Assembly (NCBI GenBank): GCA_007376535.1
Contig: VMGK01000005.1
Location: 2,085 to 66,084 of the forward strand
DNA length: 64,000 nucleotides
Reading direction: 5' to 3'
From: Candidatus Berkelbacteria bacterium Licking1014_7
GTDB taxonomy: Bacteria > Patescibacteriota > UBA1384 > GWA2-35-9 > CG2-30-39-44
The notes below the pieces were generated by a model, which was not told the origin of the DNA, did not search any database, and saw nothing but the letters and a program-made list of their open reading frames with translations. Shown here one piece after another: positions 1 to 6,637 of the stretch (within the stretch, counting starts at the first letter, position 1; the number at the start of each line of letters is the position of its first letter). Made by a program: the position numbers and the translations under genes.

Positions 1-2
1 TG

Positions 3-281
3 GTGGATAGCCGACGGACTGGCGACAGCGGCGGGACAAATAAAGACGAAAGCATTCCAGCCGGCGAGATGGTTTCAGTGGTAACGTTGGGCGCTTATAA
101 TTTTGTCAAAGTGGATGCCGGCAGTAAAGCGATTGCGGTCGGCGACTATTTGAAATCGTCCAGTAATCCGGGATACGCAACGCGGGCAGACCAGCCCAAG
201 CAGAGTTATACTTTTGGTCGCGCGCTCGGCGCTTGCCCTAAAAACACCACCTGCGAGATACCGGTTTTGATTTTAAGATAG
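3..281 (+). CDS. C-terminal fragment of an unidentified protein; the 5' end lies outside the window
   Basis: Open frame runs from the window edge to a stop at 281. No recognisable motif. Confidence 0.3.
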   Translation: MDSRRTGDSGGTNKDESIPAGEMVSVVTLGAYNFVKVDAGSKAIAVGDYLKSSSNPGYATRADQPKQSYTFGRALGACPKNTTCEIPVLILR

Positions 282-398
282 ACAACAAACTTCATTCTTA
301 AATCTGTAGAGCAATGATTATCAACCTGGCGCTTTTTGTGTTGTCAACCGTTGGCTTCGGCGTTCAGCAAATTTACGCCGGTGTCTGAGGTATAAATA

Positions 399-1004
399 AT
401 GTCTAAAACAATTCTTTTTGTTGACGGTTCGAATTTATACGGTGGTTTCACAGAGATATTAAAACCGGGAGAATATTTTGATTTTTCATCTTTTCTTAAG
501 ATTATGGAAAAAGATTTCAAAATAGATCAAGTAAATTTTTACGGCACCTATATGCGAATAGATAAAAGAAAATCAAAAGAAATTCATAAATTATCGGTTA
601 TGGCTCAGAAAGCGTTTTTTGACAGCGCCAAAAGAAATCCTAAGGTTAAATTTACCAAAGGGCATTTTTCGGGTTTTGGCAAAGAGAAAGCAGTGGATGT
701 GAAACTGGCGGTTGATATAGCAGTCGGCGCGGCGAGGAATGAATATAAGGAGGCGATTATAATGACAGGAGACGCTGATTTTATCTATGCGGTTCGGACC
801 GCAAAAAACGAAGGCAAACCAGTGCATTTGGCGGCGTTTTGCACTCGCTTTCCATACGGAATGTTTTTTTCCGCAGATCAAAAAATCGTTTATGATTTTG
901 GCAGATATTTTAAGAAACACATTTTGCCTAACCTGAAATTCAAGCCCAAGAACCTGATTATTAAAGAAATCAGCCCGAAAATTAAAATTAAAGTGATAAA
1001 ATGA
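399..1004 (+). CDS. NYN-domain (LabA-like, PIN-like) predicted RNA nuclease
   Basis: N-terminal FVDGSNLYG, with a downstream acidic cluster EKAVDVKLAVD and MTGDADF, both typical of NYN/LabA domains. Confidence 0.65.
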   Translation: MSKTILFVDGSNLYGGFTEILKPGEYFDFSSFLKIMEKDFKIDQVNFYGTYMRIDKRKSKEIHKLSVMAQKAFFDSAKRNPKVKFTKGHFSGFGKEKAVDVKLAVDIAVGAARNEYKEAIIMTGDADFIYAVRTAKNEGKPVHLAAFCTRFPYGMFFSADQKIVYDFGRYFKKHILPNLKFKPKNLIIKEISPKIKIKVIK

Positions 1005-1109
1005 AGAACCCGACACTTTGTGCCGGGTATGTTGTTTATAGTATAATAAATTAAATTAATGCTGTCAAGAGGGAGTTATCCACAGAAAATAATCTCAAAT
1101 GATAAAACT

Positions 1110-1284
1110 ATAATATCAATTTTCAAAATTATCTTGTTTGAAACATTGATAATTGAAACATTGTAAATTCAATGCCTGCCCGCCATAATTGCCTGAATGG
1201 AACACGAATGAATAATTCGAGTGGAATATCAAGCAATGAAGGTGGGAAAATTGAGAATTGAAAATTGAATTCAAGATTTTAAAC
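1110..1284 (+). repeat. About 170-bp repeat (core GAAACATTGTAAATTCAATGCCTGCCCGCCATAATTGCCTGAATGGAACACGAATGAATAATTCGAGTGGAATATCAAGCAAT...), copy 1, upstream of the LamG gene
   Basis: About 93% identical to 7170-7356, upstream of tyrS. Confidence 0.65.
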
Positions 1285-1338
1285 TTTACATTGTCATTTT
1301 GAGATTTGAATTTTGAGATTTGAATTTGAGATAGATTT

Positions 1339-2775
1339 ATGAAAAATTTCAACAAAAAACTCATTTTGTTCATTCTGGCGCTTTTTGTGTTGTCAACCGT
1401 TGGCTTCGGCGTCCAGCAAATTTACGCTTCGTTTTTGCGCGTTTCAAATTTGAATAAAGGTTTAGTCGGGCAGTGGGATTTGTCAAAAGAGAGTATGAAG
1501 TCGGCAACTGTTTTTGGGGACAGAACCCCTTACGGAAACAACGGCACTTCGGCAAACACTCCCACCCTTACCACTGACCAAAAAGGTCAGGCGAACAAGG
1601 CTTTGAGCTTTAATGGGACGAGTGATTATGTGGGAACTGGGACGAAAGTGTTATCTTCTTTCACTGCCATTACTGTAAGTGCTTGGGTTAAGTTTAATAC
1701 AACCGCAAATTATGACGGTTGGGTTAATCAGTGGGGGTCAGGCGTCTATAATGGATATGCTCATAGGATTTCAGATTCAGCCCCATATAAACAATACTTT
1801 GAGGTAAGTATAAACGATGAGAATCATGCTATTGGCGCTACGACTTTATCTACAGGAACTTGGTATCATCTTGTCGGGACGTGGACTAGCGGAGATAATG
1901 TTAGGGTTTATCTTAATGGAACATTAGATGGTACAAGCGCAACTGTGAAGACAGGAACTATTACGCCAAACAAAAATTTTGGAATAGGTTTCCTGCAATG
2001 GAGTGGAGCGAACCCTGCGAACTATCACAACGGCTCCATTAACGATGTGCGTATATACAATCGGGCGTTGACCCAAACCGAAATCACCCAACTTTACAAT
2101 CAATACGCTCCCAAACTCCAAGTCAACTCTTTAAGCAAAGGACTTGTCGGGCAGTGGAAACTCTCGCAGGCAAGCAAAAAAGGAACATTATACGGCGACT
2201 CCACCCCTTATTCCAACGACGGAACACCAGTAGGCACAACCCCCACCACCGACAGGCACGGACAAAGCAATATGGCTTTAAGTTTTAATGGGACGAGTGA
2301 TTGGGTGGATTTAGGAAATTTTTTAACGAATTGGCAACCACAAAGTATTTATACATTATCAGTTTGGTTTAAAACTACACTATCAGGTACAAACCAAGCA
2401 GTATTTGGTAATTTACAAAGTGGAGCACATGGCTATATTATTAGGATGCAAAATGAATCTATTTCTTATACTGTCTATGGTAGTGGAGTCAACGGAGTAT
2501 CTGCTTCAGCAAACTGGGTTAATATCCCAGATTCTAATTGGAATCATCTAGTCGTAATTGGAAATAATAAGGTTTTTAGTTTTTATCTAAATGGAAATCT
2601 CGTTCCAATAACTTCAAATAATTTAGTAGATGCTTCTTATACAGTGGGTGCTACACAAAGCACTAGAATAGGAGATGCATGGGTTTTTAAATTTACCGGC
2701 TCCATCTCCGATGTCCGCATTTACAATCGGGCGTTGAGCGCCGCTGAAATTTTGCAGTTGTATAATTTGTACTAA
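1339..2775 (+). CDS. Secreted protein with two LamG-like (concanavalin A-like lectin, Laminin_G_3) domains
   Basis: Signal peptide MKNFNKKLILFILALFVLSTVGFGVQQIYA. Two repeats of LVGQW.LS ... ALSFNGTSD.V ... DVRIYNRAL..EI.QLYN. Confidence 0.7.
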   Translation: MKNFNKKLILFILALFVLSTVGFGVQQIYASFLRVSNLNKGLVGQWDLSKESMKSATVFGDRTPYGNNGTSANTPTLTTDQKGQANKALSFNGTSDYVGTGTKVLSSFTAITVSAWVKFNTTANYDGWVNQWGSGVYNGYAHRISDSAPYKQYFEVSINDENHAIGATTLSTGTWYHLVGTWTSGDNVRVYLNGTLDGTSATVKTGTITPNKNFGIGFLQWSGANPANYHNGSINDVRIYNRALTQTEITQLYNQYAPKLQVNSLSKGLVGQWKLSQASKKGTLYGDSTPYSNDGTPVGTTPTTDRHGQSNMALSFNGTSDWVDLGNFLTNWQPQSIYTLSVWFKTTLSGTNQAVFGNLQSGAHGYIIRMQNESISYTVYGSGVNGVSASANWVNIPDSNWNHLVVIGNNKVFSFYLNGNLVPITSNNLVDASYTVGATQSTRIGDAWVFKFTGSISDVRIYNRALSAAEILQLYNLY

Positions 2776-2801
2776 TCCTCATCCTTTCACCTAACCCAAT
2801 T

Positions 2802-2840
2802 TTACGACACGGAGTGTCGTAAATCGTATTTTCATTTTTT
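2802..2840 (+). terminator. Putative rho-independent terminator of the LamG gene
   Basis: Perfect hairpin TTACGACAC-GGA-GTGTCGTAA followed by a T-rich tract. Confidence 0.5.
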
Positions 2841-2857
2841 AACGAGGCTCCATCTCC

Positions 2858-2895
2858 TTGACCCGTTAGTAGTGTTCCGCACTACTTTACGGGTC
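2858..2895 (+). repeat. 38-bp palindromic mini-insertion (CCCGTtAGTAGTG-TTCCG-CACTACTttACGGG core)
   Basis: Near-perfect inverted repeat sitting exactly between codons of the LamG remnant. Removing it restores the reading frame. Confidence 0.5.
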
Positions 2896-2911
2896 GATGT
2901 CCGCATCTACA

Positions 2912-3205
2912 CCCTGTGAAATTTGTAAATTTTTGAAGATAAGATGAAATTTTATTATACTTATATCCTTAAAAGTATAAAAGACAATAAATTGTATACT
3001 GGTTCAACAAAAAATTTACAAGAACGATTTGAGCAACATTGTAAGGGAAAAGTTTTTTCAACTAAGCATCGCAGACCATTAGAATTGATATACTATGAAG
3101 CTTGCTTAAATGAAAATGATGCTCGTCGCAGAGAAAGAGTATTCAAATCTTACAGAGGTAAAATGTTTATAAAAAGAAGGCTCAAATCGTATTTCACAGG
3201 GTAAA
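2912..3205 (+). mobile_element. 294-bp GIY-YIG nuclease cassette bounded by 11-bp perfect inverted repeats CCCTGTGAAAT / ATTTCACAGGG
   Basis: Inverted repeats at 2912-2922 and 3191-3201. The segment length is a multiple of 3 and removing it restores the LamG remnant frame precisely. Confidence 0.55.
2944..3204 (+). CDS. GIY-YIG domain nuclease (UPF0213/YhbQ-like small stand-alone GIY-YIG protein)
   Basis: YTYILKS...KLYTGSTKNLQERFEQH...RRPLELIYYE...RRRERVFKSYRG matches the GIY-YIG motifs (GIY, YIG, Arg and Glu core residues). Confidence 0.75.
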   Translation: MKFYYTYILKSIKDNKLYTGSTKNLQERFEQHCKGKVFSTKHRRPLELIYYEACLNENDARRRERVFKSYRGKMFIKRRLKSYFTG

Positions 3206-3316
3206 ATCGCGCCCTCATCGCCGCCGAAGTCCAACAACTCTACAATTCCTACTAATCCCATTATTCTCTTAAACTTTTATACTCTTACACTTTGAAACTT
3301 TACCCTTGTATACTAT

Positions 3317-3413
3317 GAACCCATTGCAAATCTCTCCAATCTACTACAATATGCCACATTTGGCTACAAAATACTCATCGTTCGTCATCGTCCGCCTTGG
3401 CGGATGCTTCCTC
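3317..3413 (+). mobile_element. MITE copy, 5' half only (terminal repeat GAACCCATTGCAAA), abutting and truncating the four-helix-bundle gene
   Basis: 97 bp nearly identical to 21725-21821 and 24893-24988. Confidence 0.6.
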
Positions 3414-3696
3414 TTCCGTCTCAGTGATGAGCAATCTCGCCGAGGGTTTTGAGCGCGGAACGCGCGAAGATCAAATTTATTTTTACTATATCGCCAAAGC
3501 ATCAGCCGGTGAAGTTCGTTGTCAGCTTTACATCGCGTATGACCAGAATTTCATTACAAAACAAGAATTAGACGATAACCTTACTCTTTGCAAAAAAACT
3601 TCCGCCACAATTTACCGCTTCATTGAGAGTGTAAAAGTTTCAGAGTATAAGGGTTTAAAGTTCAGAAAACCGATTAGAATTTTGGAAAAATTATGA
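3397..3696 (+). CDS. Four-helix-bundle protein (23S rRNA intervening-sequence protein family), N-terminally truncated. The first codons derive from the MITE
   Basis: SNLAEGFERGTREDQIYFYYIAKASAGEVRCQLYIA fits the IVS four-helix-bundle consensus. The usual N-terminal half is missing. Confidence 0.5.
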   Translation: MADASSSVSVMSNLAEGFERGTREDQIYFYYIAKASAGEVRCQLYIAYDQNFITKQELDDNLTLCKKTSATIYRFIESVKVSEYKGLKFRKPIRILEKL

Positions 3697-3796
3697 CAAA
3701 CCCAAATTACGGCACTTAATTCCTACCGAATATCGTGATAAGATATTAAAGAAAGGTAAAAACTCTTAAACAGGAAAAGGGGAAGGAGAGATAGAT

Positions 3797-6637
3797 CTAC
3801 TTGGTCTTGAAATTGTAAATAGAACTGGTGGCGGAGTTGGCGCTGCTGTCTTGCGAAACGATCTTAAAATAATATACGGTGGCGCTATTGAGATTGGCAA
3901 GCGTCAAAGAGTGGTTAGTAAATCCAGTTGTTTCTGTGACGGTTTTGGCATTAAGCGTGGTATTAATCAGTCCGTATTGGATATAACTTTGGCTAGGTTT
4001 GTCTGTTGTAAAACTAATTATGGCGGAGTTGGCAGTGGCTGAAACCAAGATATTGGAAATTTTAGGACCACTAGTATCAGGAGATACCAAAAATTTTATT
4101 TGTTTGTAAGCGGACGCCCCATTTTTATCAAAAGCAAAAGCGGTTAAAGTATGTTCTCCGACTGATAATCCATTCACATTGTAGGCGAGAGAGTAGGGGC
4201 TTGATGTGGCTTTGCCTATTTCAATATTATCAATTGAAAACGCCACTTCCCTGATTTCAAAATGCGCAGACGCAGATGCGGAAAAAACGGTTTCGCCTGT
4301 GGTCGTAGAATTTTCAGTCGGCGCAATTATTTCCATCACCGGCAATTTGTCTAACGAATTATACATATCGTCTTTTTCAGTCGGCGGCTGGTTGTCCATT
4401 CCTCGTTCAGCCGCCCACGCCAAAACCGGTCCCTCCCAGTTGCTGTTTTGCGGTTTTTCCGAGTGAATTTCTGTGTATAATTTTTCCTCAATTACTTCTT
4501 TAGGGGTAAATTCAGTGGCTAATTTACCATTTAATTTATTGATTTTAACCCGAATATGAATGTCGTCTTTTTTATCTGGCGCCTGCCAAGAGGTAAAAAT
4601 GTCCTTGATAATTTCCGGTGAATCAGCGGTAGGAAGTTTGTTGGATAATTTGTCAACTTCTATTTCGCGAATGCCCGACGGCTGATCAAAGCCCTTATTT
4701 TCTTTAGACAGCAGAAAACTTTTCATAAAAGCATTCCAAATCGGCGCGGCCACCACTGATCCGTCCGCGCCTTTTTTCATTCCGTCATTATTAGTATTTC
4801 CCACCCAGACAGCGGTTGAAATTTGCGGGGTATAACCCACAGTCCAGGCATCGTGAAACTCTTGAGTGGTGCCTGTCTTGACTGCCACTGTCTTGCCCGG
4901 AATGCTTAAATTATTGGTAAATCCAAAGACAGCGCCGCGGGCGTGATTGTCTGATAAAATATTGTTGATTTGGTAAGCGATTTGCGGATCAAGCACTGGT
5001 TTTGTTTCAAGATTTTCTGTCTTAAATTCTTCAAGTATTTTTCCGTTGTCGTCCTCGACTTTTAGTATGCCGGTGAGGGGCGCTTTTTTTCCTCCATTGG
5101 CAAAGACGCTAAAGGCGCCTGCCATTTCAATCGGTTTGACTTCGCCGCCGCCTAACACCAGAGAAAGTCCGTATCTGTCGGGTTGGGTTAAAGTGGTAAT
5201 TCCCAAATCCGCAGCGGTTTCCAGCGCTTTTTTAACGCCGACTAACCCCAATGTTTTGACTGCGGGAATGTTCAGAGAATTAGCCAGCGCCAAGCGCATT
5301 GAGACCGGACCGCGCTTGGAGCCGTCATAATTGTTGGGTACATAACCGCCGCCAAAATCAGTCGTAAGGTCAAAAAGAGTAAAAGCTGGGTTGTATTTAT
5401 CTTTGAAAGCAGTGGCGTAGACGATGGGCTTAAAAGACGAGCCCGGTTGGCGATTAGAAGTGGTGACATTTACCTGCCCATCAATGTCATCGTTAAAATA
5501 ATCGCGCGAGCCCACCATTGCCAGCACTTGTCCAGTGCTGGGGTCAATGGCGACCAGAGCGGCATTGTTGGCGCCATAGCGGTCTAATTTTTTACTGCCG
5601 GCTTCAATTGCGTCTAACGCTTTTTTTTGCGTATCAATATCTAATGTGGTGGTGACTTTCAGCCCGCCTTCTTCAACCATTTTTTCTCCATATTTTTCAG
5701 CCAGATATTCACGAATATAAAAAACAAAATGAGGAGCGATTAATGACTCGGACAGGGGGGTAAAGGTGATTTTGGCTTGCCGGGCTTTTTCCGCTTCATC
5801 TTTGGTGATATAGCCCAATTTTGCCATTTTTTCTAAAACCAGATCTTTTCGTTTGAGCAGTTTGTCTTTGTTAGCGCCATAAGGCGAGTAAAAAGTGGGC
5901 GCTTGCGGAAGCGCGGCAAGAGTGGCTGATTCTTCAAGTGTTAGATTTTTGGCGGGCTTGCCAAAATATTTACGGGACGCGGCTTCAATCCCATAAGCGG
6001 TTGAGCCATAAGGAATTTCATTTAAGTACATTTCTAAAATTTTGTCTTTGGAGTACATCATTTCCAATTCTAAAGACAGGATGAGTTCTTTAATTTTGCG
6101 CGAATAGGTTTTTTTCGGATTCAGAAGCGCGTTTTTGACATATTGTTGGGTAATGGTGGAGCCGCCTTGGGTAAAGCGCGATTTGCCAGTTAAGTTGTAA
6201 TAAATGGCGCGAAAAACGCCGGAAAAATCTAATCCGCGATGCTGATAAAAATCTTGGTCTTCAATGCTAACCGCAGCTTTTTTAACATAGTCGGGAATTT
6301 GGTCGGACGGAATAATCATCCGTTGTTTTTCGCCAGAAATAGCGTATAAAAGTTCGCCGTTTCGGTCAAGTATTTGGGTGGACTGCGCAGATTTTAGGGT
6401 TTTAAGTTTGGAAATGGCTGGCAGATCTTTGGAATACCAGACGAAAAGAACAACAATTGTCACAAAAAATCCCAGCGCCACTTTGCCGAAAAGTTTTAAC
6501 CAGCCCCTGAATCCTAATTTTTTGAGTTTGCGCCAGATCCTGTGGGGATTTCTAAGGTGGTTGATATGGCGCTTTATTCCGTGAGAAATTCCTAATGGGT
6601 TGAAAAGTCGTTTAATAAATTTCATGATAAAATTCAT
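3797..6637 (-). CDS. mrcA: Class A penicillin-binding protein (glycosyltransferase GT51 plus transpeptidase) with a C-terminal fibronectin-III/Ig-like extension
   Basis: EDQDFYQHRGLD and GGSTITQQ (GT51); SGSSFKP, SLN and KTGTT (transpeptidase). N-terminal TM anchor. Confidence 0.9.
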   Translation of the reverse strand: MNFIMKFIKRLFNPLGISHGIKRHINHLRNPHRIWRKLKKLGFRGWLKLFGKVALGFFVTIVVLFVWYSKDLPAISKLKTLKSAQSTQILDRNGELLYAISGEKQRMIIPSDQIPDYVKKAAVSIEDQDFYQHRGLDFSGVFRAIYYNLTGKSRFTQGGSTITQQYVKNALLNPKKTYSRKIKELILSLELEMMYSKDKILEMYLNEIPYGSTAYGIEAASRKYFGKPAKNLTLEESATLAALPQAPTFYSPYGANKDKLLKRKDLVLEKMAKLGYITKDEAEKARQAKITFTPLSESLIAPHFVFYIREYLAEKYGEKMVEEGGLKVTTTLDIDTQKKALDAIEAGSKKLDRYGANNAALVAIDPSTGQVLAMVGSRDYFNDDIDGQVNVTTSNRQPGSSFKPIVYATAFKDKYNPAFTLFDLTTDFGGGYVPNNYDGSKRGPVSMRLALANSLNIPAVKTLGLVGVKKALETAADLGITTLTQPDRYGLSLVLGGGEVKPIEMAGAFSVFANGGKKAPLTGILKVEDDNGKILEEFKTENLETKPVLDPQIAYQINNILSDNHARGAVFGFTNNLSIPGKTVAVKTGTTQEFHDAWTVGYTPQISTAVWVGNTNNDGMKKGADGSVVAAPIWNAFMKSFLLSKENKGFDQPSGIREIEVDKLSNKLPTADSPEIIKDIFTSWQAPDKKDDIHIRVKINKLNGKLATEFTPKEVIEEKLYTEIHSEKPQNSNWEGPVLAWAAERGMDNQPPTEKDDMYNSLDKLPVMEIIAPTENSTTTGETVFSASASAHFEIREVAFSIDNIEIGKATSSPYSLAYNVNGLSVGEHTLTAFAFDKNGASAYKQIKFLVSPDTSGPKISNILVSATANSAIISFTTDKPSQSYIQYGLINTTLNAKTVTETTGFTNHSLTLANLNSATVYYFKIVSQDSSANSATSSIYNFKTK

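Follow-up and report, generated by a model that had tools for sequence, protein, structure and literature searches.

The locus considered here raises a simple question: is a small nuclease gene that lies between inverted repeats, beside a LamG-domain gene, part of a piece of DNA that moves? The window, i.e., the whole stretch that we analysed, comprises 64,000 nucleotides (nt) of contig VMGK01000005.1 from Candidatus Berkelbacteria bacterium Licking1014_7. The initial annotation had described in it a 294-bp segment with an 86-codon GIY-YIG open reading frame (ORF) and 11-nt terminal inverted repeats, inserted in frame into a LamG gene remnant, and had taken this segment for an unusual mobile cassette. 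Segment, ORF and repeats are all present, the repeat being in fact 12 nt long. From comparison with relatives of the unit, we put at roughly 60% the probability that window positions 2911-3205 are one copy of a widespread family of selfish DNA elements, in which a nuclease acting on the element's own DNA junction drives mobility. The family appears to be a kind of bacterial mobile element that is remarkably small and has not been described so far, and the finding is more general than the one first proposed. The parts of the window copy, including three predicted helices (P1, P2 and P3), are as follows.

2911-3205, + strand: whole GIY-YIG element, boundaries from the family alignment
2911-3202 (292 nt): conserved core of the element, followed by the As of the stop codon
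2911-2922, + strand: 5' arm of P1, ACCCTGTGAAAT
2923-2934, + strand: 5' strand of P2, TTGTAAATTTTT, in the 5' untranslated region (5'UTR), immediately 3' of the P1 arm
2944-3204, + strand: GIY-YIG ORF, 86 amino acids (aa), single domain
3010-3021, + strand: 3' strand of P2, AAAAATTTACAA, codons 23-26
3024-3034, + strand: 5' strand of P3, ACGATTTGAGC, codons R28-F-E
3180-3190, + strand: 3' strand of P3, GCTCAAATCGT, codons L-K-S, immediately 5' of the P1 arm; CGA:TCG in the window, AGA:TCT in most relatives
3191-3202, + strand: 3' arm of P1, ATTTCACAGGGT, codons Y-F-T-G and the first base of the stop codon

The element may be said to start at 2911 or, equivalently, at 2912, as a single boundary A is assignable to either side. 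Its two arms form a 12-nt inverted repeat of 100% complementarity that contains the 11-mers first noticed (2912-2922 and 3191-3201), and the right arm is at the same time the end of the ORF (YFTG-stop). The terminal 11-mer has no further occurrence in the window, and taken alone it is not statistically striking (at least three one-mismatch matches in 13 of 100 shuffles); the terminal repeat is meaningful because it is conserved throughout the family, not because of statistics in the window.

The nuclease and its family of units

The 86-aa product, which is 100% identical to the NCBI entry 'putative endonuclease' of Candidatus Berkelbacteria bacterium Licking1014_7, matches the Pfam family GIY-YIG (PF01541, E = 7e-17). 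Residues of catalytic type (Y18, R28, H32, E52 and E64) are invariant across 25 relatives, all family-conserved residues are found in the window protein, and the AlphaFold2 model has the compact beta-beta-alpha-beta-alpha fold of GIY-YIG domains with a predicted local distance difference test score (pLDDT) of 92.6. By sequence and modelled fold, these features identify the protein as an intact member of the superfamily of GIY-YIG nucleases. It consists entirely of the catalytic domain, with no DNA-binding or other domain. The closest solved structures are the UPF0213 proteins 1zg2 (E = 4e-8) and 1ywl by sequence, and UPF0213 and the nuclease domain of Slx1 by fold (template modelling score 0.63-0.67, with 26-32% identity in the Slx1 match), which rank above UvrC and I-TevI. 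A family motif, G-x-V-x-S-T-K-x-R-R-P, stands where the aligned UPF0213 structures have GAKYT.

A protein search returned 474 matches (66-100% identity among the 120 matches listed, many of them on short contigs), and scans of one genome per species and of the metagenomes of the Joint Genome Institute (JGI) confirmed at least 575 and at least 566 relatives, respectively. Further copies, which the initial annotation had suggested searching for, were thus found: from 160 loci fetched from these scans, 154 homologous ORFs were recovered, spanning 61-81% aa identity and, according to record titles, many Patescibacteria lineages, Desulfobacterota, Bacteroidota, Bdellovibrionota, Cloacimonadota, Aminicenantes and others. 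In 147 of the 154 ORFs, the final 13 nt have a reverse-complement counterpart, with at most two mismatches, about 10-40 nt 5' of the start codon; the same comparison in control regions gives 4-6 mismatches. The unit is 278-293 bp long (about 285 bp) and encodes a single-domain protein of 84-86 aa, and several contigs carry two copies. Complete genomes with a copy include OZ246412.1, DAIOHD010000001.1, OZ257241.1 and OY762721.1. Across 138 distinct copies, the information content is 1.6-2.0 bits inside the unit and drops to about 0.1 bit outside positions -4 (left) and +4 (right), which, as far as sequence comparison goes, makes the family a unit with sharp ends in roughly 140 unrelated contexts. 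Searches of plasmids and phages gave only distant matches (36-43% identity), two plasmid matches that were examined had no informative context, and 2.9 million viral contigs held one relative; in all three sets, the family is all but missing.

At the junctions, we found no direct repeat that would denote a target-site duplication, with 1-3 bases per junction that cannot be assigned. A conserved TTY at -3 to -1 and RAA at +1 to +3 do not covary, and at position -1 there is even an anti-correlation, as though a strong pair lengthening P1 were avoided, perhaps because this is the position of cleavage or of the junction. The bases at -1/+1 in 140 elements are C with A (52), T with G (31), T with A (30) and C with G (5), and the +1 base, just outside P1, also decides whether the stop codon is TAA or TGA.

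The pairing pattern inside the unit is indicative of a three-way junction built into the DNA of its own gene, in which P1, P2 and P3 adjoin one another and leave hardly any base unpaired. The terminal inverted repeat (about 13 bp in the family) makes up P1; in P2, the stretch of 5'UTR immediately 3' of the left arm pairs with codons about 23-27; and P3 pairs codons 28-31 with codons about 79-82. Each of the three is 100% complementary in the window copy, whose minimum-energy fold (-42.4 kcal/mol, z = -5.9) includes them all. Across the family, codon 84 (Phe, Leu or Tyr, as TTC, TTA, TAC or TTG) is mirrored on the left arm by GAA, TAA, GTA or CAA; position 7 of P1 is a TA pair in 93 copies, GC in 36 and CG in 7 (97% Watson-Crick vs 53% expected); and pairing at flank positions -6 to -4 is at random level. 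Synonymous choices in P3 are compensated across about 150 nt (AGA:TCT in 119 copies, CGA:TCG in 18). In 131 of 139 elements, P2 has at least 9 bp without a mismatch (control windows reach 4-6 bp), and its many different compensated variants include TAGCTTGAGG/CCTCAAGCTA, TAATTTTAAATTT/AAATTTAAAATTA and TTTTTGCAAATC/GATTTGCAAAAA.

RNAalifold, run on 62 diverse copies, independently recovered P1 and P3. Counted on this alignment, the three-helix structure has 93.9% of cells paired vs 85.3% in shuffles, a value that none of 500 shuffles reached; double-sided changes occur at 20 of the 34 pairs, giving 160 compensated cells vs 38 in shuffles, and pairing falls to 24-54% when the partners are slid by 1-3 columns. 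Because one-sided G-U changes are rare (P3 has no one-sided change in 620 cells) and A-C mismatches in the core of P1 are at least as common as G-T, this almost purely Watson-Crick compensation is suggestive of selection on the pairing of DNA rather than of RNA. A ribozyme-like junction was considered and rejected, there being no unpaired conserved core and no Rfam match.

Insertion sites and traces of movement

Several full-length copies look recently mobile when their sequences and flanks are compared. The elements L018 and L019, on two contigs of one metagenome-assembled genome (MAG), are 98.3% identical between flanks of 25-29% identity, i.e., random level, and three further pairs of copies of at least 91% identity also have unrelated flanks. 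Many gene-less units of 43-68 bp were found in the flanks of the fetched loci; these miniatures have the same P1 arms, with two unrelated short hairpins replacing P2 and P3 (L050 has one of 52 nt), and all eight that were tested fold into perfect three-way junctions (z = -7 to -10). In locus L124 (metagenome contig Ga0256914_1098383, 1-1084), an identical 54-bp miniature splits at least four Cas12a-type clustered regularly interspaced short palindromic repeats (CRISPR; repeat CCTTAGAAGTCCTATAAGATTTCTACTTTTGTAGAT; miniatures at 453-506, 772-825, 893-946 and 1013-1066), while the remaining repeats are intact and are paralogous empty sites within the same array. Discrete ends, several copies in different contexts and short non-autonomous derivatives with the same ends, which are among the generic marks of an autonomous transposable element with MITE-like derivatives, are found, and the view of a discrete, inverted-repeat-bounded and apparently mobile cassette is borne out to that extent. 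Beside the L124 array lie a full GIY element (157-449) and a truncated one, and two of the split units have the same spacer, so that the pattern is partly due to duplication of repeat-spacer units.

Most copies lie outside LamG genes, in 23S_rRNA_IVP genes, in intergenic spots that often abut a start codon, and in CRISPR repeats. IVP genes, which are classic residents of intervening sequences, are the commonest target of a subfamily with left arm GCCCTGTTAAATAGCTTGAG, found mainly in Desulfobacterota bins; it occupies a single position in these genes (PF05635), just after the Asn of S-x-x-x-N-I-A-E-G (L024, L038, L041, L051, L052, L083, L086, L109, L110, L113, L141, L144, L150, L157, L159, L162 and others). 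The downstream half of the IVP gene continues in the reading frame of the GIY gene right after its stop codon (e.g., G-stop-KGFARTSDKEFANFLSIARG), and a clean IVP ORF could not be restored by excision, the junction having 1-6 ambiguous bases. Many Patescibacteria copies are intergenic, and about a quarter end within 8 nt of the start codon of the next ORF, a modest enrichment (26% vs 13% in an imperfect control). GIY-YIG ORFs have also been found in non-intron insertions of ribosomal RNA (rRNA) genes of the Candidate Phyla Radiation (CPR) (PMC11270868), which may be the same element, and horizontal transfer of GIY-YIG genes out of Patescibacteria has been predicted (PMC12455944).

Two sets of records bear on variation around the element. 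L182, the only second assembly of the organism, has the exact LamG protein and is 100% identical through the element, so that it offers no empty site; it matches up to about window position 3413 and diverges at its contig end inside the IVP gene, a break that fits an IVP gene being a multi-copy repeat that disrupts assemblies. In the P0045 contigs (L171-L180), the same 86-aa GIY protein lies 7 nt 5' of the start of a 739-aa LamG gene in most contigs shown, the exceptions being L176, with a PemK-like gene downstream, and L172, with a gap 360 nt longer. Their differences suggest population-level variation on the right side of the element.

LamG tails are a recurrent site of a different kind, and in the window the element lies between the following features.

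1339-2775, + strand: LamG protein, 478 aa, intact, two LamG domains (Pfam Laminin_G_3, E = 2e-44)
2801-2823, + strand: terminator-like hairpin 3' of the LamG gene, 10-bp stem and T-rich tail, TCGTATTTTC
2846-2857, + strand: orphan LamG tail, piece 1 (GSIS), identical to 2698-2709
2858-2895, no strand: imperfect 38-bp palindrome GACCCGT...ACGGGTC, which splits the orphan tail
2896-2910, + strand: orphan LamG tail, piece 2 (DVRIY), GTCCGCATCTAC
3206-3257, + strand: orphan LamG tail, piece 3 ((N)RALIAAEVQQLYNSY-stop), synonymous sites strongly diverged from the resident tail

Deleting 2858-2895 and 2912-3205 restores GSISDVRIYNRALIAAEVQQLYNSY-stop, which, as first described, closely resembles the C-terminus of the LamG protein (84% identity to residues 454-478, and 72% to the end of the first LamG domain). 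The putative LamG-tail target sequence is GTCCGCATCTACAATCGCGCC, and an example of a reconstructed empty junction is GATGTCCGCATCTACAATCGCGCCCTC. The accompanying view of an in-frame insertion into a gene remnant holds only insofar as the frame is restored. The tail of the 478-aa protein itself, GSISDVRIYNRALSAAEILQLYNLY-stop, is uninterrupted, and the remnant is an untranslated orphan copy of a tail, rather than a gene destroyed by insertion; because it lies beyond the LamG stop codon (2775) and the terminator hairpin, 'in frame' has no functional meaning. Preservation of the frame is incidental and not a property of the family, because the size of the insert varies at the same codon boundary, between Tyr and Asn (core plus 2 nt in the window and L012, core plus 1 nt in L013, and 56 nt in L011, which has a 54-bp miniature there). 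In L012, a 45-bp arm-bearing remnant lies immediately 5' of the full copy at this boundary.

In at least 12 loci, a LamG gene has the element at its 3' end in the same orientation, and an intact LamG tail with its stop codon lies upstream of the element in every LamG locus examined in detail. Within 1-4 nt of the right arm, six copies have six different tails that start exactly with N-R-A/V-L (0.15 expected by chance); the proposal that the element targets conserved LamG repeat ends agrees with these six tails at the Tyr/Asn boundary and does not extend to the majority of copies, which occupy other sites. The left flank (T)GTCCGCATCTAC is common to five LamG-associated copies: the window, L011 and L012 have it exactly, whereas L001 and L013 each differ from it by one mismatch. 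Apart from the six, three copies (L001, L092 and P0003) have a right flank that begins with IKRLYNLGR-stop, which looks like a secondary deletion. Orphan tails, consisting of the last 26-30 LamG codons downstream of intact LamG genes, were located as follows.

L092: 3454-3543 and 3985-4060
L001: 2520-2650 and 4680-4768
Window: 2846-3257

Insert-free orphan tails, with GTCCGCATCTAC and AACCGCGCGCT contiguous, are found in L092 and L001. In the Rifle contigs, one and the same terminator hairpin comes after each orphan tail, and small accessory cassettes (HicA/HicB, unknown ORFs) lie between the tails; the 3' ends of LamG genes may be repeated sites of recombination or attachment. In our reading, the tails of LamG genes form a repeated, non-essential sequence whose orphan copies build up downstream of these genes, and the element prefers, or is repeatedly recombined into, their Tyr/Asn boundary. 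The window copy probably persists in an orphan tail as insertion there would be harmless. One orphan tail of L001 holds small hairpin insertions in place of the GIY element.

Proposed mechanism, related systems and rival explanations

The mechanism that we propose begins with the structure forming in DNA, either as an extruded junction or on single strands that replication, repair or the uptake of DNA exposes. This junction would be recognised, and cut at the base of P1, by the Slx1/Ssn-like nuclease that the element encodes; the cut would promote excision or copying of the unit and its reinsertion elsewhere without target-site duplication, with joining left to host repair or ligation, and miniatures would be mobilised in trans by the nuclease. 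In its strongest form, which we hold only tentatively and with clearly less confidence than the reading of a selfish element family, the units of about 285 bp would be the smallest autonomous DNA transposons known, moved by an undescribed mechanism in which a bare GIY-YIG nuclease acts with its own (probably single-stranded) three-way junction, the host joins the strands and miniatures of ~50 bp move in trans; Ssn/NTS systems would then be domesticated or degenerate relatives. We regard the family as a variation on a known theme, an Ssn-like nuclease with cognate structured repeats, and see a real chance that it represents a new class of minimal transposon.

By architecture, the closest described system is that of the Ssn nucleases (cd10448) and the NTS hairpin repeats. 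An Ssn protein has a single GIY-YIG domain in about 94 aa and cuts only single-stranded DNA (ssDNA), beside a cognate hairpin (NTS/SRM) that lies on the flanks of the gene and at scattered sites genome-wide (Chenal et al., 2025, Nat Commun, PMC11893778). The remark that such genes are not normally regarded as mobile is partly outdated, as these authors already likened the NTS-ssnA-NTS layout to an insertion sequence and to REP/RAYT (PMC11893778). Like Ssn, the family has a single-domain GIY-YIG protein of about 90 aa (here 84-86 aa), a gene bracketed by a cognate inverted-repeat motif, and short hairpin-forming copies of the motif scattered in the genome. Unlike Ssn, it has one arm per end with the gene inside the structure, a three-way junction that uses coding sequence (P2 and P3), and multiple copies that interrupt genes and CRISPR repeats; nor does the SRM motif (HGTCWYN0-2YYVSBRHN0-5WNVSBRGN0-2RNCYNB) flank the gene, with 1 match vs 0.3 expected in the +-500-bp flanks of 152 elements, none two-sided, and 0 in the window and 0 in the miniatures. 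Searches of the PDB by sequence and by fold returned no Ssn structure among their matches.

Other systems share fewer traits. Like IS200/IS605 elements and REP (repetitive extragenic palindromic)/RAYT systems, the units are very small, apparently have their ends recognised via DNA secondary structure, seem to lack a target-site duplication and have non-autonomous palindromic derivatives (in those systems REP, REPIN and PATE). Unlike IS200/IS605, they encode as their only ORF a hydrolytic GIY-YIG enzyme instead of an HUH Y1 transposase (TnpA), measure about 285 bp as against about 700 bp or more, and have one junction over the whole element instead of separate subterminal hairpins. Slx1 and the UPF0213 proteins (YhbQ, BH0048, EF2693) are the best sequence and fold matches of the 86-aa protein. 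Slx1 cuts branched DNA (flaps, Y structures and junctions) and, unlike the 86-aa protein, has a RING domain and needs Slx4; to our knowledge, UPF0213 proteins have not been seen as repeat-bounded or multi-copy genes. A full-text literature search, which covered open-access articles and so does not prove absence, found no description of this element.

Several points weigh against a self-mobilising element. The strand-joining step is the weakest link, having no identified catalyst, because GIY-YIG enzymes are hydrolytic and form no covalent intermediate. The nuclease action and the mobility of the family are deduced from sequence comparison. The search for empty sites that the initial annotation had called for found no orthologous one for a full-length copy, and in all only paralogous ones (intact CRISPR repeats and uninterrupted orphan tails), and the window has one GIY-YIG copy only and zero miniatures. 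The junctions carry variable extra bases without a clear rule, the right arm is also coding and its conservation is partly a protein constraint, the common left flank GTCCGCATCTAC could mean that flank and element travel together via ordinary LamG-tail recombination, and errors in MAG binning may inflate the spread across phyla.

Of the rival explanations, a host-serving, domesticated Ssn-like system has the most to recommend it, and we still consider it unlikely. Here, nuclease and structured repeats would modulate recombination or uptake at repeated loci, as Ssn/NTS do in Neisseria, and the gene would spread by ordinary horizontal transfer instead of mobilising itself. The Ssn precedent (PMC11893778) favours it, as do the position of the gene among orphan LamG tails that separate small accessory-gene cassettes, the strong conservation of the protein and the single copy in the window. 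It sits poorly with a gene placed inside the structure, with sharp ends in about 140 unrelated contexts, with copies that interrupt IVP ORFs and CRISPR repeats, with multiple near-identical copies per genome or contig, with a patchy distribution across phyla at 61-81% aa identity, and with the absence, bar one match, of the Ssn-defining SRM motif from the flanks of 152 elements. Still less probable is the initial suggestion of a homing-type element, i.e., a classical free-standing endonuclease that makes a double-strand break in the LamG tail (...VRIY/NRAL...) of element-less alleles, which is then repaired from an element copy, the inverted repeat being incidental or regulatory. I-TevI/Seg homing endonucleases do have a GIY-YIG catalytic domain, recurrent insertion at one conserved coding position and apparent co-transfer of flanks; here too, the same codon boundary recurs beside six different LamG tails, LamG flanks seem to travel with the element (GTCCGCATCTAC on the left, IKRLYNLGR-stop on the right in L001, L092 and P0003), and the targets belong to repeated families (LamG tails, IVP genes and CRISPR repeats) in which gene conversion is easy. 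However, a DNA-binding domain such as I-TevI or Seg enzymes have is absent from the 86-aa protein, and I-TevI ranks well below Slx1/UPF0213 in the fold search; a perfect uninterrupted GTCCGCATCTACAACCGCGCGCTG persists in L092, 90 nt upstream of an element; and copies of 98% identity stand in flanks without homology, most copies being outside LamG. Terminal repeats, three covarying helices and miniatures are left unexplained by homing.

Lower again in probability is an element that works at the level of RNA, its helices acting in the transcript (mRNA stabilisation, translational control, or excision by RNase III as in rRNA intervening sequences) so that the insert is tolerated in genes and rRNA. 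The GIY-YIG ORFs in CPR rRNA non-intron insertions (PMC11270868), the IVP genes in the neighbourhood, and G-T pairs at P1 positions 0 and 13 in the sense of the coding strand would agree with it; the almost purely Watson-Crick compensation (P3 0/620 one-sided; A-C at least as frequent as G-U in the core of P1), the lack of an Rfam match and the position of the window element beyond a terminator do not, and the spread of copies and miniatures in non-transcribed contexts is left unexplained. As to the plainest account, a chance inverted repeat or the gene's own terminator around a housekeeping YhbQ-like gene beside a decayed LamG pseudogene, the 11-mer alone is indeed not significant in the window, and we nevertheless give this account a negligible chance: the repeat is conserved and covarying in 147 of 154 relatives, and the arms cannot form a terminator because they are 268 nt apart and enclose the ORF, the real terminator lying at 2801-2823. 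The terminator hairpin, which the initial annotation had named as a possible refutation, is thereby rejected.

Should the reading of a selfish element family hold, an 86-aa hydrolytic GIY-YIG protein would be enough to drive a mobile element that is not half as large as the smallest insertion sequences, and the nucleic-acid structure of a mobile element would be encoded within its own coding sequence. An evolutionary origin could then be given to the Ssn ssDNA nucleases and to the so far unexplained repeats on their flanks, and the scattered small GIY-YIG genes of Patescibacteria, Desulfobacterota and Bacteroidota, plus some assembly breaks, would be accounted for. It would also reveal insertions that annotation has overlooked, in CRISPR repeats, IVP genes and LamG tails, and supply many natural pairs of nuclease and DNA-junction substrate for ssDNA- or junction-specific tools.

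Other features of the locus

The 38-bp palindrome at 2858-2895, GACCCGTTAGTAGTG-TTCCG-CACTACTTTACGGGTC, separates the GSIS codons of the orphan tail from the DVRIY codons. Its fold as ssDNA (-14 kcal/mol, z = -6.2) is a plain hairpin, not a three-way junction, and it has no second copy in the window. Its termini faintly resemble the arms of the element (ACCC.GT / AC.GGGT), and one of the orphan tails of L001 has a comparable small palindrome in a similar place (about 2538-2572). No Rfam family matched the window region or ten miniature-bearing loci; the only hits were sub-threshold, chance-level ones to RT-3 and mir-4679, that to RT-3 RNA (2757-2899, - strand; 16 bits vs a gathering score of 40.5, E = 0.37) being probably due to chance.

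Downstream of the element lies one further ORF of relevance.

3397-3696, + strand: 23S_rRNA_IVP ORF (four-helix bundle), covering positions 38-105 of the 106 in the Pfam profile, whose N-terminal third it lacks

This N-terminally short ORF sits 190 nt 3' of the window element, and the region 3306-3696 includes degenerate sequence upstream of it. A diversity-generating retroelement, for which a duplicated tail and an Avd-like IVP gene might be taken, was rejected: no reverse transcriptase was found among the ORFs examined in 1-3700 (NYN, LamG, GIY-YIG and IVP; the 946-aa minus-strand ORF at 3797-6637 lies outside this set), and the differences between the two tails affect all bases and are not adenine-specific. 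Upstream, LamG residues 13-30, in the signal-peptide region (1375-1428), are duplicated at 326-379, upstream of an NYN-domain gene, with 100% aa identity (tblastn), which is a further sign of local rearrangement around the LamG gene.

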